A DNA stretch of 53,037 nt from a virus, in UHGV virus genome UHGV-0150124; one strand, given 5' to 3'. This document shows positions 11,842 through 47,359 of the stretch, piece by piece. Position 1 is the first letter of the stretch; each line of letters opens with the position of its first letter. Both the position numbers and the translations under genes were made by a program. The notes beneath the pieces were generated by a model, which worked only from the letters and a program-made list of their open reading frames with translations, was not told the DNA's origin and made no database searches.

Positions 11842-11858
11842 GGATGATGGGGTGAGTT

Positions 11859-28154: not shown

Positions 28155-28355
28155 TTACTTATTCCCCATTCGCGCGTCGTGTTCCTCTTGCGCTCGCTTG
28201 TTCTCCTGTGATTTGAAGTAATAGTTAACGGCAAATGTGCCTATGGTTGATAAGATACCCACAAAGACAGCAATATCATTAATGGTTATCGCGCCGAAAA
28301 AAGCAGTTACGGCCCCGGTCACATACGCGCACGCCTCCCGTATTCTGTCGAACAT
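28155..28355 (-). CDS. Holin (class II / pinholin-like)
   Basis: 66 aa, two hydrophobic segments, charged C-terminus [19 protein letters not shown]; stop overlaps SAR endolysin start. Confidence 0.65.
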
Positions 28356-28370
28356 AGATTTTCCTCCAAC

Positions 28371-28397
28371 AAAGCAAAAACCCGGCTCGTGGCCGGG
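28371..28397 (-). terminator. tR'-like intrinsic terminator just upstream of the holin RBS
   Basis: On minus strand: hairpin CCCGGC-CACGA-GCCGGG followed by TTTTTGCTTTG, then GGAGGA and the holin ATG. Confidence 0.55.
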
Positions 28398-28460
28398 TAA
28401 TTACAATTTCGCATTGTTAGGAAATATTTTAATCTATTTGTTTTTTATGCGCGATTATGG

Positions 28461-28643
28461 CTACAAATCACTAACTTTCACCAAATCGCCATTATCAAGC
28501 CAGATTTTAATTGTTTCTCGCGTCGTCTTGATGATTGGCGCTACCCACTCACCATCGCTAACGCAAACGCGAATATCACCACCCTCTACGCGATAAAACA
28601 TCTTGTCGATTAGTGTTACGGCGTATATACCATCTTCAATCAT
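28461..28643 (-). CDS. Hypothetical small protein
   Basis: 60-aa ORF with AGGAG RBS. Confidence 0.4.
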   Translation of the reverse strand: MIEDGIYAVTLIDKMFYRVEGGDIRVCVSDGEWVAPIIKTTRETIKIWLDNGDLVKVSDL

Positions 28644-28646
28644 TTC

Positions 28647-28823
28647 TTGCGCTCCTTAATAACCCTTTTGATCTGCGCGCGCGGCATCTACGAGAGCAAT
28701 AAACACCGCTACAGGCCAGAAAGGAATCTCAAGACCACCACGATCGAGATCATTAGATTTGATAAAACAAGACATCAGGATAGCGCCAGCAATATAAAGG
28801 AGAAACACAGCAATGATAAGACA
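28647..28823 (-). CDS. Small membrane protein (~58 aa)
   Basis: Hand-translated MIECLIIAVFLLYIAGAILMSCFIK...; below the track length cut-off. Confidence 0.3.
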
Positions 28824-28956
28824 TTCAATCATCCTCTTTCTCCCCGCCTAAATATTGATATATTTCTTCAGCATTTTCCCCGCGCTCAAAACAATAATGT
28901 TCAAACATGCGCCAATTTTCACTAAGAAACATAACAATAAAATTGTTAACGTATTC
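28816..28956 (-). CDS. Small ORF (~46 aa)
   Basis: Hand-translated MDDEYVNNFIVMFLSENWRMFEHY...; start follows stop of upstream gene. Confidence 0.25.
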
Positions 28957-28967
28957 GTCATCCATAG

Positions 28968-29219
28968 TTAATCATCCTCTTCATCATCTTCTTGTTCAGC
29001 CAGGAAATCATCTACGGCACGGTAAGTAACTGGAGGGATATATTCGAAGTCATCCGTATCAAGATCGAGCGTCCTGCTGTCGCCGTCGTCGTCAATCGTA
29101 TTCATTCCCAACTCACCGAAAGGGCCGTACCCAATGTGGCCCAGGTATTCGCAACCAATCGTAAACCCAGGGTATTCGCCTTTACACCGGATTTTGTAAG
29201 GTTTATTTGATGCGCTCAA
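28968..29219 (-). CDS. Hypothetical protein with acidic C-terminus
   Basis: 83-aa ORF ending EQEDDEEDD. Confidence 0.4.
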   Translation of the reverse strand: MSASNKPYKIRCKGEYPGFTIGCEYLGHIGYGPFGELGMNTIDDDGDSRTLDLDTDDFEYIPPVTYRAVDDFLAEQEDDEEDD

Positions 29220-29320
29220 TTTTAGAATCTCCGTCTTTCAGTGGCTTATATATAACAAAACGGCACTGCCGGAACAATGCCATTTCGTAAACATTGTGAT
29301 AAAGATCACATTTTGTTCAT

Positions 29321-29605
29321 TTAACTTGCATTTTCATCTACCTTTAAATAATTTTTCGTGTCAATATCTGCCGGATACCTTGAAAATTGCGCTAACCATT
29401 GTCCGGTAATGTTTTTCACCAGTGCATAATCAAGATCGCCGCAGTAGAATACCTGGTACATCGCCCCTTCGTTATCACTCATAACGAACACCATTGGATC
29501 AGTAGTCGCATTGCGCAGCCTGTGAATCGTGTAAGCATGGCCCGTAGTGAATTTGTACTCGTTACACGTTGTGCGGCAAAACATCCGGTCAAAATAGCTT
29601 TCCAT
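29321..29605 (-). CDS. Hypothetical protein
   Basis: 94-aa ORF, same strand as neighbours. Confidence 0.4.
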   Translation of the reverse strand: MESYFDRMFCRTTCNEYKFTTGHAYTIHRLRNATTDPMVFVMSDNEGAMYQVFYCGDLDYALVKNITGQWLAQFSRYPADIDTKNYLKVDENAS

Positions 29606-29856
29606 CAGAAAACCCCTTTATAATCGACCGTGTATTTTGCTACTAATTTCCATTCACAATAGTTTTCCATGTCGCGAGGTTGCCAGCCTTTCATGCCTAC
29701 AGCACCCCGCACACCGTGACGCCGATAATCATCGTTATAGTCAGCTATGCACCACGGCTGAAGTACAAACATATAATTGGCCTCGTTAACCAGGATCGCC
29801 ATCTGCTTTCCTGTTGCCTTATCTTTCGCCCGGAAATAACTTACCCTGATTTTCAT
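29605..29856 (-). CDS. Hypothetical protein
   Basis: 83-aa ORF, stop-start overlap with downstream ORF. Confidence 0.4.
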   Translation of the reverse strand: MKIRVSYFRAKDKATGKQMAILVNEANYMFVLQPWCIADYNDDYRRHGVRGAVGMKGWQPRDMENYCEWKLVAKYTVDYKGVF

Positions 29857-30067
29857 TTTGAATTACCTCAATCAACATTTCTTCTTCCAGGTTAGCCGGA
29901 CGCCTACGAAATATTCCGGCAAAAACCAAATCGTCGAGTAGGTCTTTACGCTTAAATAACCACTCCTTCATTATTACCCCGTCGTCGCTGCGATATACGA
30001 CGCCGTTTTTCAGAAAATAAAAAGTGTGGGTATTTGTCTGAAGGTATAGATCTTCGTAAACATCCAT
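29819..30067 (-). CDS. Hypothetical protein
   Basis: 82-aa ORF. Confidence 0.35.
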   Translation of the reverse strand: MDVYEDLYLQTNTHTFYFLKNGVVYRSDDGVIMKEWLFKRKDLLDDLVFAGIFRRRPANLEEEMLIEVIQNENQGKLFPGER

Positions 30068-30071
30068 GATG

Positions 30072-30299
30072 TTAACCCTCGACTACTTCCAGCCCGCGCC
30101 CCTTGTCGCCAACGAAGTCGCCCAAGCTGAACGTATACGACCATGCCGGATTTATGTAATGATCATCAGCGCCAGCGGCAATTAGGTCAGCACCGTTAAT
30201 CATGCAAGTGACACCATCGCTATGAACGACATTAACAACCTTACCAACAACCTGTTTCAGTGACGGATAACCGTGATCGTGCAAGAATTTAACTTTCAT
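30072..30299 (-). CDS. Hypothetical protein
   Basis: 75-aa ORF. Confidence 0.4.
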   Translation of the reverse strand: MKVKFLHDHGYPSLKQVVGKVVNVVHSDGVTCMINGADLIAAGADDHYINPAWSYTFSLGDFVGDKGRGLEVVEG

Positions 30300-30529
30300 T
30301 CCTCTGTCTCCCAGCGGTCTATGCTGATTAAAAAGTCCCGGATAGCGTGTCGCTCGTCGCGCGTTGGCTTGCGCTTCCGGTAAATCTTAAAGTCAAACCA
30401 TTCTTTTTCTTGTTCGAAATCCATGTCGTAAGCAAGCGCCTCAATATATCCGCAGTCGTGATACTGGTACGCCAGGCCAGCACGAACAAAAAAGCGGGTT
30501 TTATCCCGCTTGTGTTCATAGATACGCAT
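30296..30529 (-). CDS. Hypothetical protein
   Basis: 77-aa ORF, overlapping stop-start. Confidence 0.4.
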   Translation of the reverse strand: MRIYEHKRDKTRFFVRAGLAYQYHDCGYIEALAYDMDFEQEKEWFDFKIYRKRKPTRDERHAIRDFLISIDRWETEE

Positions 30530-30539
30530 ATTTACCCCG

Positions 30540-30770
30540 CTATGCAGTTGTGTAGCTGTCTACCAGCTTTTCATCCTTCATTCTGGCAAGCTGTGCGATG
30601 TTCATCGTGTAGCCGCCATCAGAGAAAAACCACTCCGCAGCCTTGCGACGAAAAACAATATCATCATGGTTGTGCGTCCATGTAGCGATAACCACTCGCT
30701 TTCCGTCAGTGGCAAACATTGTTAATTCATTATCAACTACGTCGATAGCCTGCCAGATTTTTATCTCCAT
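30540..30770 (-). CDS. Hypothetical protein
   Basis: 76-aa ORF. Confidence 0.4.
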   Translation of the reverse strand: MEIKIWQAIDVVDNELTMFATDGKRVVIATWTHNHDDIVFRRKAAEWFFSDGGYTMNIAQLARMKDEKLVDSYTTA

Positions 30771-31126
30771 GATTTACCCCCGTAAATTTTGAATAATTCA
30801 CGTGCTTCCTTGTCTTCAAAGAGATTCATATGCAGGTTATGCAGACGGCGCATTGTGCGGAAACGCGGTCGGAATTCCTGGCTGTTTTTAATAAACTTAC
30901 CGCCAATTGAATAAATATGACCGTATGAATACCATCTATTACCCACCCAAATTAGATATTCTTCACCCTCATAATTAAATCTTATTGTAAGCCCGTCAAC
31001 CTCCATTATTAATCCTTTATCGAGGATGTCGTTTAACATCGAATCCCATTCTTTGAGGAATGGTTGTTGATAAAAACCAAAAAGCGTATTTGCAGCATGG
31101 CAAAGATAATCAATTATTATTTGCAT
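30761..31126 (-). CDS. Hypothetical protein
   Basis: 121-aa ORF. Confidence 0.4.
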   Translation of the reverse strand: MQIIIDYLCHAANTLFGFYQQPFLKEWDSMLNDILDKGLIMEVDGLTIRFNYEGEEYLIWVGNRWYSYGHIYSIGGKFIKNSQEFRPRFRTMRRLHNLHMNLFEDKEARELFKIYGGKSWR

Positions 31127-31130
31127 ATTA

Positions 31131-31337
31131 TCACCACATCATATAGTAAACGTTATCATTGGCTATCTCGTCAGCCTCATCCTGGCAATCGAAAGGCACC
31201 AATTTATCTGGATCGTGAAAGTCAAAAGCGAGAAACCTTGCTATCCTACGCCTCATTCTTTTGTTGTGCTCAAGATCATCAAAAGCCTTTAATGCTTTGT
31301 CGTATGCCCTTACAAGGCGCTTACGGTTACTTTTCAT
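31131..31337 (-). CDS. Hypothetical small basic protein, tandem paralog 1
   Basis: 68 aa MKSNRKRLVRAYDKAL...DNVYYMMW; paralog of the adjacent gene. Confidence 0.45.
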   Translation of the reverse strand: MKSNRKRLVRAYDKALKAFDDLEHNKRMRRRIARFLAFDFHDPDKLVPFDCQDEADEIANDNVYYMMW

Positions 31338-31341
31338 ATTG

Positions 31342-31542
31342 TCACCACATCATATAGTAAACGTTATCATCTGCTAATTCGTCTGCGTCTCTTTGGCAGT
31401 CGATTGTCGCATCATCTTCGTGCCATTCTTTAGCAAATAAACGCGCCCATTTACGACGCTCACGTTTATTGTGCCGCAGGTCACTAAAAACCATTAAAGC
31501 CTTGTCGTAAGCTCTTACCAAGCGTTTCATTCTACTTTTCAT
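31342..31542 (-). CDS. Hypothetical small basic protein, tandem paralog 2
   Basis: 66 aa MKSRMKRLVRAYDKAL...DNVYYMMW; shares 5' DNA block with paralog 1. Confidence 0.45.
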   Translation of the reverse strand: MKSRMKRLVRAYDKALMVFSDLRHNKRERRKWARLFAKEWHEDDATIDCQRDADELADDNVYYMMW

Positions 31543-31748
31543 TTTTCACCATTCCTTAATTCCTTAATTTCAATATTGCGTAACCGGACGTCGCACGGCG
31601 TTTCAGATTTACCAGTAAGCGCCAGCGTCAGGTTTTCAGGTGTCGTGTAAAGAGTTATCTCTTTACCAGTGCTAAATTTAATTTCTATGCGGATCTCGTT
31701 TTCATCACCGCACAATACGCGGCTAATTGACAGGCCAGCTTTTTTCAT
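31539..31748 (-). CDS. Hypothetical protein
   Basis: 69-aa ORF. Confidence 0.4.
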   Translation of the reverse strand: MKKAGLSISRVLCGDENEIRIEIKFSTGKEITLYTTPENLTLALTGKSETPCDVRLRNIEIKELRNGEK

Positions 31749-31761
31749 TGCTCAACAAACC

Positions 31762-32061
31762 TTAAAATCTGTATTGCCAGTAAATATCACACTTTATTGC
31801 GAATACCTTCACCGGATCAGGGCCGAATAGTGGATGTTGAATCAACTTGATTTCGTACCCCATGTAAGGCAATACGATAATCCGGTCTTTCTCATCATCC
31901 GATGGATAACCCCATTTAATGATTAATCTTGTGTACTCCCGCCCCTCCAGGCGTTTACGCCAGTATTCATTGTAAAGCCGGTATTCTTCCACCTTCTTTC
32001 CCGCCCGGATGGCGTGGAAGTATTCACCTTTTAAATTCAAATGTAAGTGTTTATTTGCCAT
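31762..32061 (-). CDS. Putative ASCH/PUA-like domain protein
   Basis: 99 aa; N-terminus LHLNLKGEYFHAIRAGKKVEEYR resembles ASCH domain openings (by eye). Confidence 0.4.
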   Translation of the reverse strand: MANKHLHLNLKGEYFHAIRAGKKVEEYRLYNEYWRKRLEGREYTRLIIKWGYPSDDEKDRIIVLPYMGYEIKLIQHPLFGPDPVKVFAIKCDIYWQYRF

Positions 32062-32320
32062 CGCTATGATCCTGTAAACAGTCGTTATAGCCTTCGATGT
32101 ATCCGGTTAATCCTGTGTTACTTACTGACCAATCAGCCGAACGGCGCTTGATGGCCTTGTCCATAGTCATCTCGTCACCTGGCCCGCCTGGCTCGATGTA
32201 TTTTCTTAAATCCCTTGCTATCCACGTCCCTAATTGTTGCGTATCACTGCACACACGCGCCGTTAATGTCAGATTATTAACCAGCTTTGCGAATAGATGT
32301 TCTTTTAATTTAGGCTTCAT
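32051..32320 (-). CDS. Hypothetical protein
   Basis: 89-aa ORF. Confidence 0.4.
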   Translation of the reverse strand: MKPKLKEHLFAKLVNNLTLTARVCSDTQQLGTWIARDLRKYIEPGGPGDEMTMDKAIKRRSADWSVSNTGLTGYIEGYNDCLQDHSDGK

Positions 32321-32510
32321 CCTTCACCTCGCGACGATAGATTTCTACTGGCTTAACCGGAATAGCGTTAAAATCCCCTTCATCCAGTGCGGCAATAAAC
32401 GTTAGCGCCAACCGTGCTTCAACACCGCTTAAATACTTGCACCATGCCTCACCGTTATAATCTTCAAAAAGAATAACCGCTTTTTTCATGTTTATCTCTT
32501 GTTGTTTCAT
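32310..32510 (-). CDS. Hypothetical protein
   Basis: 66-aa ORF starting at the Q stop codon. Confidence 0.4.
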   Translation of the reverse strand: MKQQEINMKKAVILFEDYNGEAWCKYLSGVEARLALTFIAALDEGDFNAIPVKPVEIYRREVKDEA

Positions 32511-33232
32511 TATTCACCCCGTGTCACTCGTTTAATTTCGTTATCAGCCCGCGCCTCTTCTTTGAACAATTCAGTAATGGCGTCTTCATAGAAAGCACGG
32601 TATTTCTTCCACCACGTTGATCGGCTTACCGGAAATACAAGCTGATTAACCGCACGCCGGACAAGATCTACAGGGAAACGCGAGTACCCGCGCCCGCCGC
32701 AATGCTGGCACGTTTTGAACACTGGCATTTCCGCTGCTTCACTGGCTGCTTTATCCGGTATCTCGCCGCGCCCTTTGCATCGTTTACAATGATTACGAAC
32801 TTTTCCATGCCCCTTGCATTTTTTGCAAAGGTGTTTTTCTCCGTAGTCGTCAAACGTAAATTTATATCCGCCGCAATCCATACAAGTTTTTTCTGTCGCG
32901 GCACTCTGGCAGTAATCCCGAAACGCGAAAACGGCAACAAGAATAATAAGATCATTGCGTTTGTCCTCGTCCAGCTCTATGACGTATTCGTAATCTTTTG
33001 CCATAGCTCTTAAACGCTCTGTAAGCAAAACTACGGCCCTGTGTTTTTCGGCTTGCGATAGTTCCATCTTTCCCAAAAAAGCGCTATAGCCAAGCTCTAC
33101 GCGCGATTGCGCCATACCCGCAGCGGTTAGCGCATCCGTCGTATTAAGAGCGTCCGGGGACGTGCCCCGGCTTTCGTCAGATAATCGCGGTGATTTAGGA
33201 AAGTGGAATTTTAGAATGGATTCTAAATTCAT
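32510..33232 (-). CDS. Q: Late-gene antiterminator Q (lambda type)
   Basis: 240 aa; N-terminus MNLESILKFHFPKSP vs lambda Q MRLESVAKFHSPKSP; Cys-rich zinc-binding segment CMDCGG...CKRCKGRGE...CQHCGGRGYSRF. Confidence 0.85.
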   Translation of the reverse strand: MNLESILKFHFPKSPRLSDESRGTSPDALNTTDALTAAGMAQSRVELGYSAFLGKMELSQAEKHRAVVLLTERLRAMAKDYEYVIELDEDKRNDLIILVAVFAFRDYCQSAATEKTCMDCGGYKFTFDDYGEKHLCKKCKGHGKVRNHCKRCKGRGEIPDKAASEAAEMPVFKTCQHCGGRGYSRFPVDLVRRAVNQLVFPVSRSTWWKKYRAFYEDAITELFKEEARADNEIKRVTRGE

Positions 33233-33414
33233 TATTTGCCCTCATAACGTGCCGCCAGCCGTTTACGATCAGAAATGGATTGCACCAGCTTTCTTTCGAA
33301 CTCTTTCAGCGCAAGTAATTCGCGCATGTGGAAAGCCTGGATTTGTCGGACCGTCTCTAAATCACGCTCGTCGCGCTGAATATCTATTTGCAGATCTTTA
33401 ACTTCGTTTTTCAT
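33232..33414 (-). CDS. Hypothetical coiled-coil protein
   Basis: 60-aa ORF between RusA and Q. Confidence 0.35.
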   Translation of the reverse strand: MKNEVKDLQIDIQRDERDLETVRQIQAFHMRELLALKEFERKLVQSISDRKRLAARYEGK

Positions 33415-33818
33415 TGCTCACCCCACATATTAGTCGCGTATTCGTCAATATCCGGTAGTAGGTCGCCGCGTTCGCGGATCTTAATAAACAAGCGTCCGCC
33501 TTTTACCTTCCGGCAGCGAACAATTTTTATTGCGTCGATTTGTCCGTCATCCTTCCAGAACTCTGCATAAGTAAGACTATCAAAAAGGCATTTGGGGATA
33601 TTATCCAGATCTCTGATCCGGTTATCCGGCGGCGCGGCGTAAATGGCAATTGCCAGTCGGCAAGGTAGGTTAATATTTAAATTTAATAGCTCGATGATGT
33701 CTCTTACTTGTTCCCTGTATTCCTTCCCCACTTTGCTGATATAGTGAAAACCGCGCGAATGTCGGTAATAGCGATTATTCGATGGCGGGTAAGGCAGGCT
33801 AAAAGAATATTCATTCAT
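33411..33818 (-). CDS. rusA: Holliday junction resolvase RusA
   Basis: 135 aa; MNEYSFSLPYPPSNNRYYRH...RDLDN...GGRLFIKI matches RusA by eye. Confidence 0.85.
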   Translation of the reverse strand: MNEYSFSLPYPPSNNRYYRHSRGFHYISKVGKEYREQVRDIIELLNLNINLPCRLAIAIYAAPPDNRIRDLDNIPKCLFDSLTYAEFWKDDGQIDAIKIVRCRKVKGGRLFIKIRERGDLLPDIDEYATNMWGEQ

Positions 33819-34420
33819 GCTGCCTTTCTCCTTAAGGCGTCCAATTTAGCCTGATAGATGTTTATTAGCTCCTTACATTCTGCGATCGTCCATTTATGCG
33901 TATCATTGTTGTTTTCCAGCGCTACCACCCTGGCGAGGCCAATTTTTCGAATCAGTGCCGGGCGATACCCTCCTATGTTCCCGTCTAATGTCTGGTTGCA
34001 GTGCCTGCATTGTTTATGGCAATTATCTTCGTTAAAGCGAAGATGTCCGGCGGCGGCTACCGTCCTGTAATGACCTGCATCCCACCCGCATTGCTCACCG
34101 TAGTAAGTCCCGCAAGATATACACGGCAAGCGCGCGTCACGTTCGCGAATATAGGCGTTAAATACATTTTGAACTTGTTTGATCCAATAACTACGCGGAT
34201 TTAACTGTTTACGCTTCCGGTTGCGTTCTTCCCTCTGGCTATCACGGCGTTTCTTCCGCTCCATAGCCTTCATAGCCTTCTCACGGTCGCGGCATAACTG
34301 GTCAAACTTCAGTTCTTCCAGACATTCATCGCTGCACCACGTTTGATTATGATATTTAGGCTCAAAAAAAACGCCGCAGCACTTGCAACGGCGTCTTATG
34401 GGTTTTTTAGGGTTTTGCAT
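33815..34420 (-). CDS. ninG: NinG (Rap)-like recombination-associated protein
   Basis: Cys clusters and SYWIKQ...AYIRERDARLPCISCG...WDAGHYRTVAAA...HKWTIAECK align with lambda NinG; track ORF extends to 34510. Confidence 0.8.
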   Translation of the reverse strand: MQNPKKPIRRRCKCCGVFFEPKYHNQTWCSDECLEELKFDQLCRDREKAMKAMERKKRRDSQREERNRKRKQLNPRSYWIKQVQNVFNAYIRERDARLPCISCGTYYGEQCGWDAGHYRTVAAAGHLRFNEDNCHKQCRHCNQTLDGNIGGYRPALIRKIGLARVVALENNNDTHKWTIAECKELINIYQAKLDALRRKAA

Positions 34421-34732
34421 AAAAACCACCCCGATTATTTTTGATTCTCTGTTTCGTTCAGCCTTTCGGCGTGTCCGGCCCTTAGCCAATGTTCTAAGCA
34501 TTCGTTGCACTCGTTACAGCCTCCTTTCTTCGTGCTGCATACATTGCACATTGCACGCATAACGCTTTCTCGTTCATAGTCGTCATGCCATTGGTAATCA
34601 TCAAAAGACATAATGCTCTCTCCTTTTCAGGTGATTTCTACGCATTTCAGCGCTGCCGGATTTTTAAAGAGCATTTTGTTTGCTTGAAGTATACAAAATG
34701 GATATGCCATAACAAGGTGAAAAGCGCCATTA

Positions 34733-34748
34733 TGTGATACGTATCACA
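34733..34748. promoter_or_regulatory. CRP-consensus palindrome TGTGATACGTATCACA
   Basis: Perfect TGTGA-N6-TCACA within a fully symmetric 14-bp palindrome, in the gap between methylase and ninG. Confidence 0.4.
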
Positions 34749-34770
34749 CAGTGACGCCATTTTGTAAACT

Positions 34771-35535
34771 TCAGTCCGGCAAAACACGGTTAAGCGTAGT
34801 CCGCGTGATGGCCCTGTCGTTAGCCAGGAATACAGCTCGTGCGAAGCCGCGCGGCGTTAGTGAGCGGATCATCTTAGTGCGCTTCGACTTTCCGCCTAAC
34901 TTCGCGTGCTGCTTACTGTCTTCCCATTCATCCGGCATTGGTACAGGCCGGAATAGCGGCTGCTTAAATCCATTACCACACCAAATACATGTTTTCTTCG
35001 TGTAGGCATCGCGGTCGGCAATGTATTCCGGGAAAGCAGGATGTTTGTCATCTTCAGGCAGGTAGCCACCGTAAACGCAAGGATTGAAGATAAAATCCGG
35101 TTTACGCCATAACGTTGACAGTGCGCCAACTGGATTTTCCACCATCCACGGCACGTTATACATATTCGCCAGTTTTTCTACAATTTTTGCGTTATACGCC
35201 GCCTTTACCTGGAAGCTAGGATCTTTTTTCCGTTTATCAGCGAACCAACGAGCGCCTGATACGGCAAGATCATCACACGGAGGAAAGCCCAAGATAATGT
35301 CAGGCTCTGGATAAACAGACAATTCAGGGGAGAACATTACCAGGAAATGGCTGTCAATCCATACGTTAACATATTCAATATTTGGATGAATTATTTTTAC
35401 CCCGTCATAATCCCCGTGATTAGCGCCGTCATAGTTGAAGCAATAGCATTTATAACCAGCTTCCGCCCAATCTTTAACGGCGTACCCGCTTCCGTCGTAC
35501 AGCGACCAGATAACCCAATTTCTAAGCCCGCTCAT
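34771..35535 (-). CDS. Putative DNA cytosine methyltransferase-like protein
   Basis: 254 aa; GFPPC (Pro-Cys) and MVENPVG (ENV-like) motifs; unusually short for a C5-MTase. Confidence 0.45.
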   Translation of the reverse strand: MSGLRNWVIWSLYDGSGYAVKDWAEAGYKCYCFNYDGANHGDYDGVKIIHPNIEYVNVWIDSHFLVMFSPELSVYPEPDIILGFPPCDDLAVSGARWFADKRKKDPSFQVKAAYNAKIVEKLANMYNVPWMVENPVGALSTLWRKPDFIFNPCVYGGYLPEDDKHPAFPEYIADRDAYTKKTCIWCGNGFKQPLFRPVPMPDEWEDSKQHAKLGGKSKRTKMIRSLTPRGFARAVFLANDRAITRTTLNRVLPD

Positions 35536-36035
35536 TTTCTACCCTCAAACGTGAAATAGCGGCGCATGATGATAGTAATCACCGTTACAGCCGCCATTTT
35601 TGAGATGAATTGCATAGCTGATATTTCCGGCATGAATGCCATAAACGATAGCGTCGGAAAAATTAACGCATCACCAATGGCGGACGCTATATTTGCAGGC
35701 CATCGTTTAGAATCAAAGTCACCAGGTAAAACCCGGTAAACGCAGCCAGAAATAAGCGCACCGGAAACAACCGCAACGAATGACGCGATCGCCACCATTC
35801 CGGCGTCGTAATTTATCAGCACCGTGATTGCGCCAGCGGCGGCGCATGTTGTAGCCGACCATTTAAGGCCGCCGTCATATAACAGAAAATCACGAATCAT
35901 CATATTGACACACACGGCGGCTACCGTGGTGATCGGAATTACCCACGGGCCACAGTGGTTAACAATAAGATTGATGATCACGAAAACGGCGACATAAATG
36001 CAGGCTAATAACCTGTCAATTGCCACCCTCTTCAT
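35532..36035 (-). CDS. Integral membrane protein (several TM helices)
   Basis: 167 aa, hydrophobic throughout. Confidence 0.35.
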   Translation of the reverse strand: MKRVAIDRLLACIYVAVFVIINLIVNHCGPWVIPITTVAAVCVNMMIRDFLLYDGGLKWSATTCAAAGAITVLINYDAGMVAIASFVAVVSGALISGCVYRVLPGDFDSKRWPANIASAIGDALIFPTLSFMAFMPEISAMQFISKMAAVTVITIIMRRYFTFEGRK

Positions 36036-36354
36036 TTAGCTCTCCCTCCCGATCCGCTAATATCTGTTCGGCCTTAAGCGCGTTATAAGCAATAAGGTCT
36101 ATAAGAGTGTCGAGCGGATCAGTTCCATTAGCGAGAATAGCCCCTAAGCGCGCTTCCTTGAGGCAAATCATTAGATCCCATACATCAAGTGGGGTTAAAT
36201 TCGCATTCATCTTAGCGTTGAAAATAGCCGCTATTTTTGGCGCTGATTTTTCTTCTTTTCGATCGTATCCGTTTGTTTCCCCTCTCGCCTCAATAGTTTC
36301 AGCCGCAAGTCTTAGCAATTCAGCCGCTTTACTCATTTTCTGCACCTCTTGCAT
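36016..36354 (-). CDS. Hypothetical protein
   Basis: 112-aa ORF between the two methylase genes. Confidence 0.4.
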   Translation of the reverse strand: MQEVQKMSKAAELLRLAAETIEARGETNGYDRKEEKSAPKIAAIFNAKMNANLTPLDVWDLMICLKEARLGAILANGTDPLDTLIDLIAYNALKAEQILADREGELNEEGGN

Positions 36355-36868
36355 ATAGCTCTTTACGTGTTATCTGCGTGAAAATACATTCATGTCTGCA
36401 TCGTGGATGCCAGATCAAGAACAAGCTCCCCTTATTGTTCCCGCTTACTGGTTTCCCTGTTGCAGCATTGATAAACGCCAGCCGCCCGCCCGTGATTAAT
36501 CGGCATTCGTTTGCCGTCTCCACGCCGTTCATAAACCAGCTAACAGAAATGTCAGCGGGCAATAGCATTACACAGCCAATGTGATTTCGTTGATGTTCAA
36601 GCGCCGCCTTATCAACGAATGGCCCCGGATTAGAATATGGCGGATTCATCCAGACATACTCACCAGGCATCGCCACCGCACCCCACGGATAATGAAGCGT
36701 GTCCATTTCTTCGGTTATATATCGCGGGATTAATGCGTTTGCCTTGTTTGCCGCCACATCCGCGACGAATTCGAATTCCCGATCCATTCCTCTAAAAACT
36801 GGTTTTGGCGTTTGCCATAAGTCTTTTATTTCTTTCGGCGTATGGCTGCCGCCGTAATCATTTTTCAT
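36329..36868 (-). CDS. DNA N6-adenine methyltransferase (phage Dam-like)
   Basis: 179 aa; catalytic NPPY motif in VWMNPPYSNPGPF. Confidence 0.7.
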   Translation of the reverse strand: MKNDYGGSHTPKEIKDLWQTPKPVFRGMDREFEFVADVAANKANALIPRYITEEMDTLHYPWGAVAMPGEYVWMNPPYSNPGPFVDKAALEHQRNHIGCVMLLPADISVSWFMNGVETANECRLITGGRLAFINAATGKPVSGNNKGSLFLIWHPRCRHECIFTQITRKELYARGAENE

Positions 36869-36877
36869 TACGCCCCC

Positions 36878-37159
36878 TTAGAAATAATCCTGTTCCGTTC
36901 CCCAGCGGTTATTCAGATACCCCACCAACCACACAAAACGCTCAATACTGATTAGCGGGGCGACCTTGCGATAATGCTTATCTAATATCAGCCGCGTGGC
37001 TTTATCGCTGTATCCGTTCTTTTCTACCTCCGCCTTGCAGGCCGAAAGCGCGGCGCGGGCGGCAGTCTTTACGGCGTTAAATTGCGGCTCTGACAGGTTA
37101 AATAAAGCCATTTTATAAATCATCAGTAGAATCAGCGAAAAAGAACCCAACAAATACAC
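36878..37159 (-). CDS. Hypothetical protein
   Basis: 93-aa ORF. Confidence 0.35.
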   Translation of the reverse strand: MYLLGSFSLILLMIYKMALFNLSEPQFNAVKTAARAALSACKAEVEKNGYSDKATRLILDKHYRKVAPLISIERFVWLVGYLNNRWGTEQDYF

Positions 37160-37355
37160 TAACAGTAATAATAACCATTAATATATAAAGCGCATCATCA
37201 GGTGATGGAATTTCTGGTGGCTCCCATGTAACAAACGACACACCACATAAAATTCCAATAAAAACCGTAGCTATACATGAGAATACGAAAAAAGAACAAA
37301 ATAACCATCCAATAATGAAGTCAATAATTGCACGCATTATTTTAAACGTCCTCAA
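37113..37355 (-). CDS. Small membrane protein
   Basis: 80 aa, two hydrophobic segments. Confidence 0.35.
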   Translation of the reverse strand: MRTFKIMRAIIDFIIGWLFCSFFVFSCIATVFIGILCGVSFVTWEPPEIPSPDDALYILMVIITVSVFVGFFFADSTDDL

Positions 37356-37545
37356 TTACCCCGCCTTTCACGCGCTCTTTAATATCCCATACGTGAGGCT
37401 TGCATATTTCTTGATAGTAGTGATCCAGCCTGCTGCCGAAATACCATTTGCCATCCATATAAAAATAAACGCCAGAAAAATTTCCTGGCGCTGCCTTTGT
37501 TGCTGCTTCTGGAATTTTCCATTCCATGTAATGTTTAAATTTCAT
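37342..37545 (-). CDS. Hypothetical protein
   Basis: 67-aa ORF. Confidence 0.35.
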   Translation of the reverse strand: MKFKHYMEWKIPEAATKAAPGNFSGVYFYMDGKWYFGSRLDHYYQEICKPHVWDIKERVKGGVIEDV

Positions 37546-37729
37546 GAGTTTTTAAATAACCTCTTCTGAATGCTTTGATGTAAATTCCTAATCTCCTTAT
37601 ATGTTGAACGCCATCAATAAGACGTATTAAATAAATCGCTCCTTTTGCGTCAGATACAAATCTACACCCGAAACCAATGCCAACTAATTTTAGGCTATCA
37701 GGTATTCGATAATCAGTTTCTTGTTCCAT
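37535..37729 (-). CDS. Hypothetical protein
   Basis: 64-aa ORF. Confidence 0.35.
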   Translation of the reverse strand: MEQETDYRIPDSLKLVGIGFGCRFVSDAKGAIYLIRLIDGVQHIRRLGIYIKAFRRGYLKTHEI

Positions 37730-37827
37730 ACATTACCTCATATGGTATTCAATAAACCACCTGATAAACAGGCATAAGGCAATAAAACCCCAGAAACAGC
37801 ACATATAAAACAATGTATCGTCCATAA

Positions 37828-38103
37828 TTAAGCCTCAATAACACCGTAATCAAACGTGCCTAAATACCGTTCGATACTTACAACCTCAATACCATCAATA
37901 CACCGTTTCCACACAGACACCTGGCTTTCATTTTCTCTGAAGTGCATATTAGAAAGCACTTCATCGGCTGGATAGTCTTTCCCGGCGACGTAGGCATCGT
38001 GACCTACGCCACCTTCTACGCAATAAAGCATCAATTCGCGTTCCATTTTTGCTTCCTCCGCACCGTAAACCTTTTGATTTCGGCTTACAAAACGGATATG
38101 CAA
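37828..38103 (-). CDS. Hypothetical protein
   Basis: 91-aa ORF. Confidence 0.4.
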   Translation of the reverse strand: MHIRFVSRNQKVYGAEEAKMERELMLYCVEGGVGHDAYVAGKDYPADEVLSNMHFRENESQVSVWKRCIDGIEVVSIERYLGTFDYGVIEA

Positions 38104-38145
38104 TCACAATACAAAATGTATATTTATGTGATCGGAATTACTCTG

Positions 38146-38766
38146 TTAATGCAGTACACGTTTTCCCTGTTCAGGCGTCGGCTGTGCGTTTTTCCGTGCG
38201 TCATTAAGCACAGCGATAGCCGCCTGTACGCCGAAATCATTTGCACGCATATCATTGCCAACCATTTCACCGTAAAACAATGGCATGAGCGCTTTTACTT
38301 CTTCCTCTTTGTGGCCTTCCTCAATGCATTTCTGCAACATCTTAACCTCAAAGATATTTTTCATCAGGCCGCGCATAGAATGCAGTGAAACACTACCAAG
38401 CTGATCCTTGTTCAACGGGAAAATAACAGCACTTCCGAACGCGAGCGGATCAACCTCTTCCGGCACTGGTACGCGTCCGAATTCTTCCTCCATGCGCTTC
38501 ACAAAAGTAAGAGAGAATACATAACGCGCTACCGATGTTTTTTCTTCCATACTTAAAGACACGTAATCGCGGATTGACGCACCCATCACAATATCAACAA
38601 CCTGTAGCGCCAGATTCAAATCAGCGTCATACGCGCCAGCTTCCATATCTTTCAATACTTCGTGATAATCTTTAATTTCCACTTCGTGAAAGTTTGCATC
38701 ATCTGTATAGCGAGTGATCAACATACCTTCATTACCGAGAGAGTAAGCTGTTTTGATGTCGTTCAT
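38146..38766 (-). CDS. Hypothetical protein
   Basis: 206-aa ORF in the early-left block. Confidence 0.45.
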   Translation of the reverse strand: MNDIKTAYSLGNEGMLITRYTDDANFHEVEIKDYHEVLKDMEAGAYDADLNLALQVVDIVMGASIRDYVSLSMEEKTSVARYVFSLTFVKRMEEEFGRVPVPEEVDPLAFGSAVIFPLNKDQLGSVSLHSMRGLMKNIFEVKMLQKCIEEGHKEEEVKALMPLFYGEMVGNDMRANDFGVQAAIAVLNDARKNAQPTPEQGKRVLH

Positions 38767-38779
38767 GATATTTATCCTT

Positions 38780-39112
38780 TTATAGTGGGTGATGCCATTT
38801 CATTTCAGTTTCTGAATTAAACGGGTTTCCTTCGCTTGAAAGGAATAAATCACGCTCCCGTTTCAGTTCTTCCGGGCTTATTTCTATTTCATCAATCTGA
38901 CCGAACGATCCCGGCATCATTCGTTTTAAATCAGATAGCGGACGCATAAGGCCGCAGCCGCGTAACAGCATATCGACCGCGAATTGTCTACGTCCGCCAG
39001 CGTCATTGAAGCGCCGCGCCCAGGGCACAACCACGATCCGGCGTTCGAATTCGATAAATAGTGATAGCTTGTTTGTTTCGCTATCATATGCTTTATGGAA
39101 TTTAATTTTCAT
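38780..39112 (-). CDS. Hypothetical protein
   Basis: 110-aa ORF. Confidence 0.4.
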   Translation of the reverse strand: MKIKFHKAYDSETNKLSLFIEFERRIVVVPWARRFNDAGGRRQFAVDMLLRGCGLMRPLSDLKRMMPGSFGQIDEIEISPEELKRERDLFLSSEGNPFNSETEMKWHHPL

Positions 39113-39293
39113 TTAACACCTCAACATATTGTTCAAGATGCCATTGACCCACCTCATCATCTTCCTCGTCAAATAATGTTACCTGACCACCAGGCCCAAA
39201 AGAAAAGGCAGCTATGATAAATTTATACCCATACCACGTACGGATCTTTTCGCCGCCTTTTAAATCTTTAACTTTTACCAATTTTATAGCCAT
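39102..39293 (-). CDS. Hypothetical protein
   Basis: 63-aa ORF. Confidence 0.35.
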   Translation of the reverse strand: MAIKLVKVKDLKGGEKIRTWYGYKFIIAAFSFGPGGQVTLFDEEDDEVGQWHLEQYVEVLNEN

Positions 39294-39559
39294 ACGCCGA
39301 ACATCCCATTCAGTCCGGCGAACAATTTCCGCCAGTGGTCTTCAACATAAGCCCGGAACGGCTTAACGCGAACATTACGGGCCTTCAGTTCGATCTTGTC
39401 AAAGAAGCGCGGCTCTATAATTGTTCCGTCCAGATATTTAACCAGGATCGGACGCTCAAGATCGTTATATGTCTTATTCAGCACAACCAGACCAGGGTCT
39501 TTACGGTATTCCGGGAGCACGACCAGATCACCCGTTTTGATATTCATGAATGGCATCAC
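39284..39559 (-). CDS. Hypothetical protein
   Basis: 91-aa ORF. Confidence 0.4.
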   Translation of the reverse strand: MMPFMNIKTGDLVVLPEYRKDPGLVVLNKTYNDLERPILVKYLDGTIIEPRFFDKIELKARNVRVKPFRAYVEDHWRKLFAGLNGMFGVWL

Positions 39560-39672
39560 ATCACCCCGCCGATATAGCTAATAATTGCCGCAGTCGCGCC
39601 AGCTATTACCACCATGAAGACGAAAGCGACCACACAGAAAACAGCCTTGACAGTATTTTTGTCGACTCGCAT
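39556..39672 (-). CDS. Small hydrophobic peptide (~38 aa)
   Basis: Hand-translated MRVDKNTVKAVFCVVAFVFMVVIAGATAAIISYIGGVM. Confidence 0.3.
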   Translation of the reverse strand: MRVDKNTVKAVFCVVAFVFMVVIAGATAAIISYIGGVM

Positions 39673-39679
39673 ATAAACC

Positions 39680-39787
39680 TCACATGTCAGTAATCAGCTT
39701 AACAATCGCCACAGTGATATAGAGTGACGCACTAAGGTAAACAGCCGCCACAGCAACGGCGGCGGATAACATTGCAATCTTTTTCAT
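39680..39787 (-). CDS. Small hydrophobic peptide (~35 aa)
   Basis: Hand-translated MKKIAMLSAAVAVAAVYLSASLYITVAIVKLITDM; start overlaps stop of upstream gene. Confidence 0.3.
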   Translation of the reverse strand: MKKIAMLSAAVAVAAVYLSASLYITVAIVKLITDM

Positions 39788-40035
39788 TTGCCACCCTCCG
39801 CAATGAACTTATCAAGCCATTTGTTATTAGCCAGCCGTTCGGCATCTTCGCCAAATGATTTACGTTCGCTTAATTCCTTGCGCGTCGGGAAAGGCCATTT
39901 ATCGTGCCAGCCCGCCGACGTTTCGAATTCATAGTTACCGCCACCGAATTCGACAAATACATCACCATCGTCTGAGGTTTCCGCAGTCCCCTGAAAACCG
40001 CGCCCGTTATTTTCGCTTAATGTTGTAGCTGTCAT
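39784..40035 (-). CDS. Hypothetical protein
   Basis: 83-aa ORF. Confidence 0.4.
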   Translation of the reverse strand: MTATTLSENNGRGFQGTAETSDDGDVFVEFGGGNYEFETSAGWHDKWPFPTRKELSERKSFGEDAERLANNKWLDKFIAEGGK

Positions 40036-40047
40036 GGTAATACCTCA

Positions 40048-40326
40048 TTAATCGTTAATAACCTTGCCCATACGCCCGCGATATTTGCGCATTCGTGGAT
40101 CAACATATTCAGGCCACTGCATATCATCAGTTTTCTGTAGCGGGTAAGAACTCGCTCGCCAGTTGTCAAACCAGATTTGCTTCGCGTACAGGTCACTAAA
40201 TCTTTTCGCCATTCGATCCGCTGCCGTGCCGCATAAAAAAAGCCCGCGATCGATTTGATCGCGGGCTTCTTTTAATACTTGCTCTTTTGTTCGTGGTTGC
40301 GGTGGCGGTTTTAGATAATCACTCAT
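40048..40326 (-). CDS. Hypothetical protein
   Basis: Start taken at MSDYLK (track ORF extends into ssb). Confidence 0.4.
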   Translation of the reverse strand: MSDYLKPPPQPRTKEQVLKEARDQIDRGLFLCGTAADRMAKRFSDLYAKQIWFDNWRASSYPLQKTDDMQWPEYVDPRMRKYRGRMGKVIND

Positions 40327-40342
40327 CGCTAACACATTGATT

Positions 40343-40762
40343 CTAAAAAGGAATATCGTCGTCGAAGTCCATCGGAGGCGGATTATTCCCGTTATTATTC
40401 TGCTGCTGCGGCGGCGCTTTCTGCTGCTGTCCTTGCTGCTGGCCTTGTTGGTTAACATTCATGAATTCAAATTCATTAACCGCCACTTCTACCGCAGTCC
40501 CCTTCGTGCCGTCGTTCCGGTCATATTGCCGAACATCCAGGCGACCGCTTACCACTATTTTTCCACCCTTGCGGATATGTGGCGCTAATTTTTCCGCACG
40601 CTCACCAAATACCAGGCAAGTGATCCACATTGTCCGCTTGTTATCACCGTAGCCATTCGTTACAGCTAACGGAAAACTACCAATCGCTTTACCGTTTTGC
40701 GTGTAGCGAACTTCCATGTCGTTTCCGATATTCCCGCCCAGCGTAATTGAATTCAAACTCAT
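40343..40762 (-). CDS. ssb: Single-stranded DNA-binding protein
   Basis: 139 aa, OB-fold-like N-terminal region, Gln/Pro-rich linker, C-terminal acidic tip DFDDDIPF. Confidence 0.9.
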   Translation of the reverse strand: MSLNSITLGGNIGNDMEVRYTQNGKAIGSFPLAVTNGYGDNKRTMWITCLVFGERAEKLAPHIRKGGKIVVSGRLDVRQYDRNDGTKGTAVEVAVNEFEFMNVNQQGQQQGQQQKAPPQQQNNNGNNPPPMDFDDDIPF

Positions 40763-41406
40763 TAACCCATCTCCCCGTTAAGCTCTGCGACCCGGATGTC
40801 ATAAACATCTTTTGCCTTGATTCGATGTTCCGATCCTTCCGGTAGTAATTTCCAGCATTTGCCAAATATTTCACGCAGCTTGTTAGCGTCCTGCGCTTTC
40901 GCTGCTGCATCACAGAAACGTGCTAATACTTCATCAGGATTTGGCGGCGCTTTCTTCTGCTGCGGTTGTTGTTTTGGTGGGTTTTTCTGTTGTCGCGGCT
41001 GCTGGCCTGTCTGCTTCGCGTAAGCATCAGTATCAGGATCGCGAGCATCATCTATACAGAATAAACCGTTCAAAGCATATTTACGCGCGTAACTTGATGT
41101 TGCTCCTGTTAGCTGGCTGGCGTCCATACCCTTCTTGTTTTCTTCCTCCCTGGCATAAGCAGTTACCGCTATTACGTCTTCACCGTCGCTTAGCGTCGCC
41201 GTTGCTTTCACATAATAGCGATTGCCGATCAGGACAATTTCATCACTAACAGTCAGCGTGATATTTTGAAGCAGTGGTTTAACCGCCTCTAAAATATCCT
41301 CCGCCGACCTGTAATTATATCCACCAAAATTATTACGCTGATTTTTCGGCGCGTTCAGCGTTTGCTGAATCGTCCATAGCTTTTTATGTAACTCTGTTTT
41401 CACCAT
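40762..41406 (-). CDS. erf: Erf-family single-strand annealing protein
   Basis: LNAPKNQRNNFGGYNYRSAEDILEAVKPLL...DEIVLIGNRYYVKATATLSDGE...AREEENKKGMDASQLTGATSSYARKYALNGLF matches P22 Erf by eye. Confidence 0.85.
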   Translation of the reverse strand: MVKTELHKKLWTIQQTLNAPKNQRNNFGGYNYRSAEDILEAVKPLLQNITLTVSDEIVLIGNRYYVKATATLSDGEDVIAVTAYAREEENKKGMDASQLTGATSSYARKYALNGLFCIDDARDPDTDAYAKQTGQQPRQQKNPPKQQPQQKKAPPNPDEVLARFCDAAAKAQDANKLREIFGKCWKLLPEGSEHRIKAKDVYDIRVAELNGEMG

Positions 41407-41552
41407 TTAATCTCCCGTGCTGTTAACACTATGTATAAGGCTTTATTCGCGGCGCTCCACATTTCGGCATCGTGAAGCATTTCCGCTACTGCCAGTTTGA
41501 ATTGAAGCGCCTGAATAACCATAATGTCACCTCCGGATGTTTACATTTTGTA

Positions 41553-41843
41553 TTAATGGTAGCGGACTTTATCCAGGGGTTTTTCCCCTAAATGGCGTGG
41601 TTGCGTTGCGTGGTAGTAGCTGCCGCTTTCATTTTCCGTATACCATTTTACTGATCCTTTGCGACGTTCTTTAATGCTATTTGGTTTGCATCTTTCCTCG
41701 TTTGCAAATCGAATAGCTTTATCCACATTGTCTGTTTTATTGATTGCAGGTGATGATTTTCTTTCGTTTTCTCTTTTTATCCTTCTGCGTTCCCTGGCAT
41801 TCATTTTGCTATCACATTTACCATATATAATTGTAACGCTCAT
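41553..41843 (-). CDS. N-like transcription antiterminator
   Basis: N-terminus MSVTIIYGK...NARERRRIKRENER is an arginine-rich motif resembling P22 gp24 / lambda N; first gene leftward of the repressor. Confidence 0.65.
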   Translation of the reverse strand: MSVTIIYGKCDSKMNARERRRIKRENERKSSPAINKTDNVDKAIRFANEERCKPNSIKERRKGSVKWYTENESGSYYHATQPRHLGEKPLDKVRYH

Positions 41844-41898
41844 AATCTGATCTCCGTATATCCTTGATGATACTTAATAAAAAATCATCTTCGTTAAT

Positions 41899-41938
41899 TG
41901 CCGCACTTCCAGCGGCTGACCAGATTGTTAATGAGCGG
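41899..41938 (-). promoter_or_regulatory. Candidate nutL (boxA CGCTCATTA plus boxB hairpin GCCGC-UGGAAGU-GCGGC)
   Basis: Read on minus strand 56-95 nt upstream of the N-like start. Confidence 0.4.
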
Positions 41939-42310
41939 CTTAACATCTTTCAACTAATCCCGCAATCATCGCCGTTCCCGGCGTGACCTTGCTCACTCCA
42001 AGCAAGCTGACTCGTCGCCTTGCGTGCGGTTTCGTGGGGGATGTAACGCTTTAAACACCCCATGCGCCTTGTTATCAGTGCCGCTTTCGGTCCCCCATCG
42101 GGGAGTTACTCCACGGTTGACAAGGTGTTAAGCCTGATTTTTAAAGTGCCAGGAAGTTGCTTTTGTTACCTGCGCCCTTCCTTTGACTCGCAATATACGC
42201 CCCGTAAAACATCGAGTCAATCCATTTTGTATACTTTTTTAAAATATTTTATATGCCATTGATATTTAAATAATAAATAACGTTTTCTGTTTACGTTTTG
42301 GTGTTTTCCA

Positions 42311-42337
42311 GGCAAAGAAAAGCCGCCATTCGGCGGC
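42311..42337 (-). terminator. Intrinsic terminator downstream of the repressor gene
   Basis: On minus strand: hairpin GCCGCC-GAAT-GGCGGC followed by TTTTCTTTG. Confidence 0.55.
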
Positions 42338-42343
42338 TAATGT

Positions 42344-43554: not shown

Positions 43555-43557
43555 TCT

Positions 43558-46045: not shown

Positions 46046-46222
46046 TGTATACAAATTGTAAACCGTAATGTATACGATTAGTTATTCATTAAGTGGTTAT
46101 TTCAATTTGCATAAGTTGTTGATTAACCCTACTGGCATTTTTTGACACCGTGAAATCCATGTTAATAAAAATTAGTTATTTATGAATAAATACTCATTCC
46201 GCGAACCGGGGGTAATAACGTT

Positions 46223-47341: not shown

Positions 47342-47359
47342 ACCGGAGGTAATGCCATA

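Follow-up and report, generated by a model that had tools for sequence, protein, structure and literature searches.

A prophage of the mEpimmI group in dgcM with ninG, Q and late genes on the repressor-side arm

Results

Gene order of the prophage

The window analysed here, the whole 53,037-nucleotide stretch of UHGV virus genome UHGV-0150124, is one complete 52.5-kb prophage inserted in dgcM (ydaM), together with a few hundred bases of host DNA. Its subject is the order of the early and late genes, above all in the region 28371–41843 (hereafter the N–holin region), where an N-like antiterminator, recombination genes, nin genes and Q follow one another on the strand of the repressor. The element is taken as a single prophage because it is bracketed by a 12-nt direct repeat, GTCCTGTCTGGA (attL core at 116–127, attR core at 52659–52670, neither with a strand), is flanked by dgcM and matches phages of the mEp group. 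The left junction between prophage and host lies inside the 5′ end of dgcM, and the right flank is dgcM according to the annotation of strain M15. The GC skew reverses its sign at 42–44 kb, which is the point from which the two arms diverge. Gene calls were checked by Pfam and PHROG profile searches, and synteny by tblastn in both directions against lambda and P22.

The repressor-side arm is encoded on the minus strand. It starts with a CI-type repressor (42344–42991; Peptidase_S24, E 6e-19, and HTH_3, E 1.5e-12, in Pfam), which is followed by the N-like early antiterminator, a homologue of mEp021 Gp17 (41553–41843; phrog_271 ‘anti-termination protein N-like’, E 1.3e-13), erf (40762–41406; PF04404, E 1e-42) and ssb (40343–40762; PF00436, E 5e-24). 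Further along are a dam methyltransferase (36329–36868; PF05869, E 1e-51) and a second DNA methyltransferase (34771–35535; phrog_757, E 5e-88), with two open reading frames (ORFs) of unknown function between them on the same strand (within 34771–36868). Then come a ninF-like gene (34435–34611; the mEp021 homologue is annotated NinF), ninG (33815–34510; Pfam NinG, E 1e-66), rusA (33411–33818; Pfam RusA, E 4e-14) and Q, a late antiterminator of the lambda-Q family (32510–33232; PF03589, E 2e-30), which matches the Q-lambda structures 7UBM/4MO1 in a PDB sequence search (E 2e-39). About 17 small, mostly unknown ORFs form a variable accessory region from Q to the holin (28461–32510; ORF lists and the RefSeq annotation of M15). 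The arm ends with the lysis genes assigned by PHROG, namely the holin (28155–28355), the endolysin (27662–28153) and an Rz-like spanin (27204–27692), and with the structural and packaging genes (567–25510; PHROG, E 1e-51 to 0).

The replication arm runs on the plus strand. It comprises a gp14-like small winged-helix protein of 85 aa (43297–43554; N-terminus of phrog_4617 ‘replication initiation protein’, E 1e-21), a Lin1244-type replication initiator (43558–44604; Lin1244_N, Pfam), a DnaB helicase (47360–48775; Pfam), a regulator named Lrp/AsnC-like in RefSeq (48819–49412), ninB (49819–50250; Pfam), an unknown gene (50441–51100) and a xis-like HTH_23 protein (51100–51330; Pfam). A tyrosine integrase (51270–52484; Phage_integrase and Arm-DNA-bind_3) lies at the end, on the minus strand.

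A first-pass annotation made from the letters of the window had placed ninG, rusA, Q, the lysis genes and the structural genes after N, erf and ssb on the repressor strand, with both methylases in between. The profile searches agree, reproducing all the gene calls on which this rests; the strands and the N and Q homologues were assigned rightly (phrog_271, PF03589 and the 7UBM/4MO1 matches), and the unusual order is real. The statement that only the replication module occupies the opposite arm was right for the initiator and the helicase, but ninB, a DUF559 gene and the Lrp/AsnC-like and xis-like genes are found there too. Similarly, the nin genes are on the N arm as far as the ninF-like gene and ninG are concerned, but not ninB.

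Membership in the mEpimmI group

The N–holin region and the right-hand 12 kb were each compared by megablast with 50,697 phage records, and eight records matched each time: MagusPhagus, mEp021, mEp010, mEp013, mEp044, mEp515 and mEp554, plus one extra record per search (the 1.45-kb mEp021 fragment JQ072023 for the N–holin region, a match to the dgcM flank for the right-hand 12 kb). Identity over the N–holin region is 92% across 84% of it for MagusPhagus and 86–87% across 74–84% for the six mEp phages. The immunity region (41400–43620) was found in 35 of 5,426 complete E. coli genomes, in every case as a single, chromosomal copy, with 99.9% identity in strain M15 and 99–99.8% in M1/5, MS 21-1 and FAH; the latter three are listed as carrying mEpimmI prophages (PMC11893012). 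The repressor also retrieved 47 IMG/VR loci, 44 of them group members. Comparisons of order and identity rest on these 44, and counts of motif invariance on 36 unique relatives (28 for leader conservation).

The mEpimmI group, with mEp021 as its archetype, was defined in a 2025 paper from six isolates and 42 further genomes (PMC11893012). It is described there as non-lambdoid, Nus-dependent, mostly not UV-inducible and conserved in synteny; the describers call it non-lambdoid because the isolates form no viable hybrids with lambda and do not hybridise to lambda DNA. Siphovirus morphology and dependence on host Nus factors are reported for the isolates. The CI-like repressor of mEp021 (Rep021) was shown to confer immunity. 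Gp17, which is N-like and has conserved arginines at positions 17, 19, 20 and 24, antiterminates together with Nus factors at three nut sites, of which nutL lies by the repressor, nutR1 precedes gp17 and nutR2 follows the methylase region. The terminators t1, t2 and t5 of mEp021 were shown experimentally, and the insertion sites are ydaM, abgT or mppA, ydaM being that of phages with the type I integrase (all PMC11893012).

Every sequence-level criterion of this group fits the window. The repressor is 95% identical to that of mEp021, 90–100% identical across the 44 loci, and contains the HTH_3 and S24 domains by which the group is recognised. The N-like protein is 93% identical to Gp17, with R17, R19, R20, R21 and R24 invariant in the alignment, and its homologues in the phage collection are limited to seven isolates. 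Three boxA sites are found at the published positions of nutL, nutR1 and nutR2. Integration agrees as well, given the att-core repeat, the dgcM flank and the tyrosine-recombinase domains of the integrase, and so do architecture and nucleotide similarity. The 44 loci, mEp021 and mEp044 all have ninB, helicase and initiator reading away from cI, N, erf, ssb, dam, (dcm), ninF, ninG, rusA and Q. Marker order and strands are identical to those of the window in mEp021 (MH706966, whose annotation carries the same gene order), in mEp010/013/044/515/554 (PP180001-5) and in MagusPhagus (PP925836). Whole-genome nucleotide similarity to these phages is 86–92%, parts of the window being 99% identical to sequenced prophages, and the differences are confined to accessory content. 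The Q-to-holin region measures 4.1 kb in the window versus ~2 kb in mEp021, and the window allele of gp14 is just 34% identical to that of mEp021.

Comparison with lambda and P22

The first-pass annotation had set this order against that of lambda, and strand synteny shows the same contrast with both lambda and P22 (tblastn and annotated references). In these two phages, cI/erf are encoded on one strand and the helicase, ninB, ninG and Q on the opposite one. In the window, the minus strand holds ninG, Q and Rz along with cI and erf, and the plus strand holds the initiator, the helicase and ninB, so that the ninG–Q–late block sits on the cI/erf strand here and not in lambda or P22; the same order is found in the related prophages.

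Likeness to lambda (J02459) extends to individual proteins (identities of 34% for cI, 52% for ninB, 53% for ninG, 35% for Q and 32% for Rz), to a predicted antitermination of the N type with boxA/boxB and Nus factors, and to late genes downstream of Q on the same strand. The window differs in the orientation of its early segment, which is turned around with respect to Q and the late genes: Q is reached by way of N and the recombination genes, and the replication genes run toward xis. In addition, the window has Erf/SSB instead of Red, a Lin1244-type initiator and a DnaB helicase instead of O/P, three nut sites and an int gene transcribed inward, and neither Cro nor CII nor a PR′ beside Q was detected in it. 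P22 (BK000583) is the closest classical lambdoid phage in early-gene content (c2 40%, erf 53%, DnaB-type helicase gp12 56%, ninB 53%, ninG 51% and gp23 34% identical), and the C-terminus of its gp18 is 35% identical to that of the window initiator. P22 nevertheless has the standard order, erf-24-c2 diverging from cro-c1-18-12-ninB..ninG-23-PR′-lysis, with cro, c1 and a mapped PR′/qut beside gene 23; here ninF-ninG-rusA-Q-late follows the erf arm instead.

Regarding the features by which a phage is called lambdoid, the window departs from the lambda-type module order that permits hybrids (strand synteny), and no CI/Cro switch with a divergent cro was found by ORF and profile scans of ORFs of at least 40 codons and Pfam-recognised folds. 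N- and Q-type antitermination, in turn, is predicted from the N-like profile match, the boxA sites and the Q of the lambda family.

The layout can be derived from that of lambda or P22 by what would be one inversion of the segment running from the distal recombination genes through N and cI to the initiator, the helicase and ninB, with putative breakpoints next to xis and between ninB and ninF. If P22 is written as att-int-xis-(ea..erf..24-c2 / cro-c1-18-12-ninB)-ninF-ninG-23-late, inverting the part in brackets yields att-int-xis′-(ninB..helicase..initiator-gp14 / cI-N-erf-ssb..methylases)-ninF-ninG-rusA-Q-late, which is the order of the window.

The gap beside the repressor and the gp14-like gene

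The control region between the repressor start at 42991 and the start codon at 43297 (42992–43296, plus strand) measures exactly 305 bp and contains no credible ORF, in accordance with the first-pass annotation, which had reported no Cro-like ORF in it. The sole in-frame ORF is TTG-started, highly basic, 47 codons long and overlaps nutL, and was rejected as a Cro candidate, as were the PHANOTATE/Pharokka calls that overlap the same frame in the gaps of mEp044 and MagusPhagus. A search for a small Cro among 70 ORFs of 40–140 codons on both early arms gave no HTH_3 or Cro-type protein; the only helix-turn-helix (HTH) matches in Pfam were the gp14-like and xis-like genes. A Cro gene at the canonical place is, judging from these scans, probably absent. 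One of the 70 ORFs has a weak Lambda_Kil match (E 2e-4). A gp16-like 37-codon ORF between t1 and N was rejected as a regulator, its ~213-bp stretch being missing from relatives of the mEp044 type.

The gp14-like gene would be a DNA-binding module of the replication initiator rather than a Cro, an assignment that is based on its profile matches, on allele divergence and on fusion and absence variants. Its other profile matches are to several ‘O-like’ initiator families (PHROG) and, below threshold, to HTH_36, DnaD_N and Phage_rep_O; two gp14 homologues carry PF13730 HTH_36, and a sequence search of gp14 against the PDB returned nothing usable. Across the 44 loci, gp14 alleles range from 99% down to 29% identity, against 90–100% for the repressor and 88–100% for the control region, and the similarity among loci breaks exactly at the gp14 start codon. 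In two loci (L030 and L035), a fusion protein combines a gp14-type domain (28.6% identity, E 1e-11; HTH_36, E 1e-14) with the C-terminal 187 residues of the initiator, which are 87–90% identical to those of the window initiator. In a third locus (L045), whose repressor is 90% identical, gp14 is absent and a Lin1244-type initiator directly follows the conserved leader.

The initiators of the group occur in three modular forms with a shared C-terminal domain: a small HTH_36-type protein plus a Lin1244_N initiator (window, 43297–44604), an HTH_36 fusion without Lin1244_N (L030, 8700–9698; L035, 8693–9691) and a Lin1244_N initiator alone (L045, 6559–7668).

Early control regions

The boxA sequence GCTCTTTAAAAATC is exact at 43156–43169 (plus; nutL) and at 34672–34659 (minus; nutR2), and the nutR1 boxA, GCACTTTAAAAATC, at 42149–42136 (minus), has one mismatch. 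The boxA scan gave four matches against 0.6 expected; boxB hairpins were weakly predicted by fold analysis. On the N arm, terminator t1 (42338–42321, minus; terminator scan) is followed by an early promoter candidate, TTGACT-17-TATATT (42220–42192, minus; promoter scan), ~37 nt upstream of nutR1, whose hexamers are invariant and whose spacer is variable in the 36 unique relatives. This candidate is embedded in an inverted repeat, TTGACTCG-N20-CGAGTCAA (42184–42220), which gives rise to a second match, TTGACT-16-TAAAAC, in the opposite direction, toward the 3′ end of the repressor gene. The spacer from the repressor to N falls into two classes among relatives, ~1148 versus ~935 bp (window ~41920–42132). 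The short-spacer class is without the stretch of the 37-codon ORF (mEp021 gp16 homologue) and has a different sequence directly after the nutR1 boxA. These classes match the description of nutR1 as the most variable nut site (PMC11893012).

On the replication arm, the promoter candidate is TTGATC-16-TAAACT (43051–43078, plus), with eight of 12 consensus positions. The leader of 135 nt that extends from nutL as far as the ribosome-binding site of the first gene (43156–43290) is near-invariant in the 28 unique relatives, its conservation exceeding that of the promoter/operator portion of this gap. Neither a terminator nor a stable fold was found in the nutL part of this leader (z-score 0.28).

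A third control region lies between the second methylase and ninF. It contains the t4 hairpin (34758–34723, minus; fold z-score -3.5) and, after it, a promoter-like sequence, TTGTTA-16-TATACT (34715–34688, minus; nine of 12 positions in the promoter scan), here called the PR2 candidate, which precedes nutR2. The PR2–nutR2 cassette stays with ninF even in relatives without a detected dcm homologue. It is paralogous to the replication-arm promoter–nutL cassette, with 25 of 36 promoter positions in common, a 64-nt gap and an exact 19-nt ATGCTCTTTAAAAATCCGG. Since the PR2 hexamers and the nutR2 boxA are invariant in the 36 unique relatives, and given this paralogy and the linkage to ninF, we infer that PR2 may be a third early promoter at the inversion junction, one that would give nin–Q an early promoter of its own.

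The Q-to-holin region

The distance from Q to the holin is 3.1–5.8 kb in relatives and is filled by variable small ORFs. Before the holin there is a conserved non-coding block (28363–28443, minus; a ~95 nt conserved stretch) that includes the intrinsic terminator t5, with its hairpin at 28398–28380 (minus; terminator scan; fold z-score -2.8) and a T-run. This terminator is homologous to TERM_5/t5 of mEp021, and the block is kept in nearly all of the 36 unique relatives, even with differing flanks. By analogy with PR transcription in lambda, N-modified transcription of the repressor-side arm would run co-directionally through Q into the late genes.

Three candidate elements of this region were rejected. 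A GTGAAA-16-CATAAT sequence upstream of t5, considered as a late promoter, is not conserved in mEp021 or mEp044. A conserved island at 30520–30476, considered as a late control site, lies inside a conserved 77-codon gene, and an ACAAUGCGAAAUUGU hairpin before t5, considered as a fourth boxB, has a common T-to-C variant that breaks a pair with no compensating change. No other stretch between Q and the holin is as well conserved as the island (16-mers exact in 83% of the 47 loci), which contains, within the 77-codon ORF (mEp021 gp39 homologue), a terminator-like hairpin, AAGCGGGATAAAACCCGC, followed by TTTTTT. At 28400–28443, two T-to-C changes co-occur in relatives, turning AATTGTAATTAC into AACTGTAACTAC. 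This points to a tandem hexamer repeat and not to the predicted ACAAU-GCGAA-AUUGU hairpin, which the change would break.

Recurrent motifs

The core of the CRP consensus, TGTGA-N6-TCACA, has three exact copies in the window, all intergenic (9732–9747, 29295–29310 and 34733–34748), where 0.04 are expected and none of 100 shuffles reaches three; each is 0–70 nt from a copy of the motif CCATTTTGTA. The copy at 34733–34748, with its centre ~59.5 nt upstream of the predicted start of PR2, could act as a class I CRP site for this candidate. However, it forms the tip of the t4 hairpin, and many relatives have C in place of the outer T, which leaves GTGA-N6-TCAC as the invariant part. The 29.3-kb type is present in 19 of the 47 related loci and is followed by a promoter-like TTGTTC-17-TATATA, whose predicted start lies ~61 nt downstream of it.

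A 16-nt motif, TCCATTTTGTAWACTT, has 14 copies at no more than three mismatches versus 1.7 expected (0/100 shuffles), including those at 42221–42236, 43064–43079, 34687–34702, 34756–34771, 9814–9829, 11601–11616, 11992–12007 and 47330–47345. The sites checked for context are intergenic and often co-oriented with local transcription. The motif is not palindromic; at two candidate early promoters it includes the -10 hexamer, and at the third it adjoins the -35. Although it is present in all three early control regions, it is doubtful as a repressor operator, being non-palindromic, shifted at the 42192–42220 promoter and also found between genes of the late region.

Other genes

Within the structural and packaging genes, PHROG identifies J (2838–7787), the tape measure (12200–14545), the major capsid protein (18358–19419), the portal (22025–23416), terL (23544–25028) and terS (25025–25510), all on the minus strand. 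Plus-strand ORFs at 9723–10870 and 11686–12113 sit within the tail-gene cluster and may be morons; genes for superinfection-exclusion lipoproteins have been placed in the structural cluster of mEpimmI phages (PMC11893012). Between initiator and helicase, the AT-rich interval 44605–46222 (GC 0.38) encodes a protein of 372 residues with a DUF559/PvuRts1I-like endonuclease signature at its C-terminus. In mEp021 this place is taken by a zinc-ribbon protein and an HNH endonuclease, so that the interval looks like a variable slot occupied by selfish nucleases.

Discussion

The prophage is with high probability an ordinary member of the published mEpimmI group, in which regulatory parts of the lambda kind are arranged in an order of the group’s own. 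The feature therefore belongs to an already known phage group and is not new. The first-pass annotation had presented the order as an atypical lambdoid architecture; the describers of the group use the term non-lambdoid, and the same order is already present in MH706966 and in PMC11893012. Because mEp021, mEp044 and 44 IMG/VR loci share it, it is an already described module order, the very outcome that the first-pass annotation had named as counting against its claim. That the window might be a new, previously undescribed rearranged lambdoid prophage is very improbable. The order does depart from lambda and P22, and N-like homologues occur in just seven of the 50,697 phage records, but these seven are published mEpimmI isolates with identical order. 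Moreover, 44 IMG/VR loci have this order and 35 complete E. coli genomes contain the immunity region, and PMC11893012 already describes the group together with its nut sites and repressor, with the records MH706966 and PP18000x matching. Still further from credible is an artefact, whether an inversion produced by misassembly or a pair of adjacent or defective prophages taken for one. No evidence supporting it was found, a single pair of att cores brackets the 52.5-kb element, the GC skew is coherent with two divergent arms, and independently sequenced plaque-forming phages and closed chromosomes have the identical order.

In the arrangement that we propose for this mEpimmI member, the replication arm would lead from the immunity region through nutL, the small winged-helix protein, the initiator, the DnaB helicase and ninB to the xis-like gene. 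The repressor-side arm would start downstream of t1 at the conserved promoter and pass nutR1, the N-like gene, erf, ssb, accessory genes and the two methylases, continuing through t4, nutR2, ninF, ninG, rusA, Q, the accessory ORFs and t5 into the lysis and structural genes. Q and the late genes would be reached by N-modified transcription of this arm. A conserved promoter-like copy of the promoter–nutL cassette of the replication arm would stand in front of nutR2 at the ninF breakpoint. There would be no Cro gene, the small gene beside the repressor being presumably an initiator DNA-binding module.

Several observations weigh against parts of this arrangement. No late promoter was found, nor, among the relatives, a conserved sigma-70 promoter upstream of t5; a blastn-short comparison of lambda 44511–44800 with the window for a lambda-like PR′/qut gave noise only, and ORFs abut Q on both sides. 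The replication-arm promoter candidates reach just eight of 12 consensus positions, TTGATC-16-TAAACT being the better one, and promoter-like matches across the region are no commoner than in shuffles. The Cro scan covers ORFs of at least 40 codons and Pfam-recognised folds, so that a shorter Cro or one of another fold is possible. Immunity, Nus dependence and antitermination are carried over from the work on mEp021 (PMC11893012). The single inversion maps one order onto the other in a formal sense. Orthology with lambda is lacking for most early genes, and module exchange or replacement may therefore have taken place instead of, or beside, a plain inversion.

Two alternatives concern the control elements themselves. 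The gp14-like gene, as the first gene divergent from the repressor, could be a Cro analogue that shuts off the early promoters. Its position and size would suit this role (85 aa, HTH), it is annotated as ‘MarR family’ in RefSeq and in mEp021, and Cro proteins have diverse folds. Nevertheless, its best profile matches are to N-terminal DNA-binding domains of phage replication initiators, the domain is fused to the initiator in two loci and absent in another, and its alleles fall to 29–35% identity under a near-invariant repressor and a conserved control region, which makes a Cro function improbable and argues for the initiator module. The choice is much closer for nutR2, which may have no promoter of its own and just reload or boost N (Gp17) on transcripts begun 7.5 kb upstream, as the term ‘an additional nut site’ in the literature implies. 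To this reading we give a chance slightly below even, nearly that of PR2, because promoter-like matches are not enriched over shuffles; in addition, a design based on read-through would suit the t4 hairpin immediately upstream, and three nut sites acted on by Gp17 are described with no promoter named at nutR2 in the available text of PMC11893012. It accounts less well for the invariance of TTGTTA and TATACT in the 36 unique relatives despite a variable spacer, for a boxA starting ~10 nt past the predicted start, for the promoter-plus-nut unit being a paralogue of the replication-arm cassette, and for the 16-nt TCCATTTTGTATACTT, which holds the -10 hexamer and recurs exactly at 42221–42236 and with one mismatch at 43064–43079. 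The full combination of a Cro-less CI switch, an inverted lambdoid early segment and a duplicated, repressor-controlled PR2–nutR2 unit kept at the breakpoint for control of nin–Q and the late genes is put forward only tentatively, as a doubtful but possible account.

If that combination were true, the group would possess an early circuit of three promoters and three nut sites; the available text of PMC11893012 mentions no promoter at nutR2 and does not describe Cro as absent. The group is a natural experiment in which lambda parts (CI, N/nut/Nus and Q) are wired differently, with Q and the late genes placed behind N and the recombination genes instead of behind cro and the replication genes.

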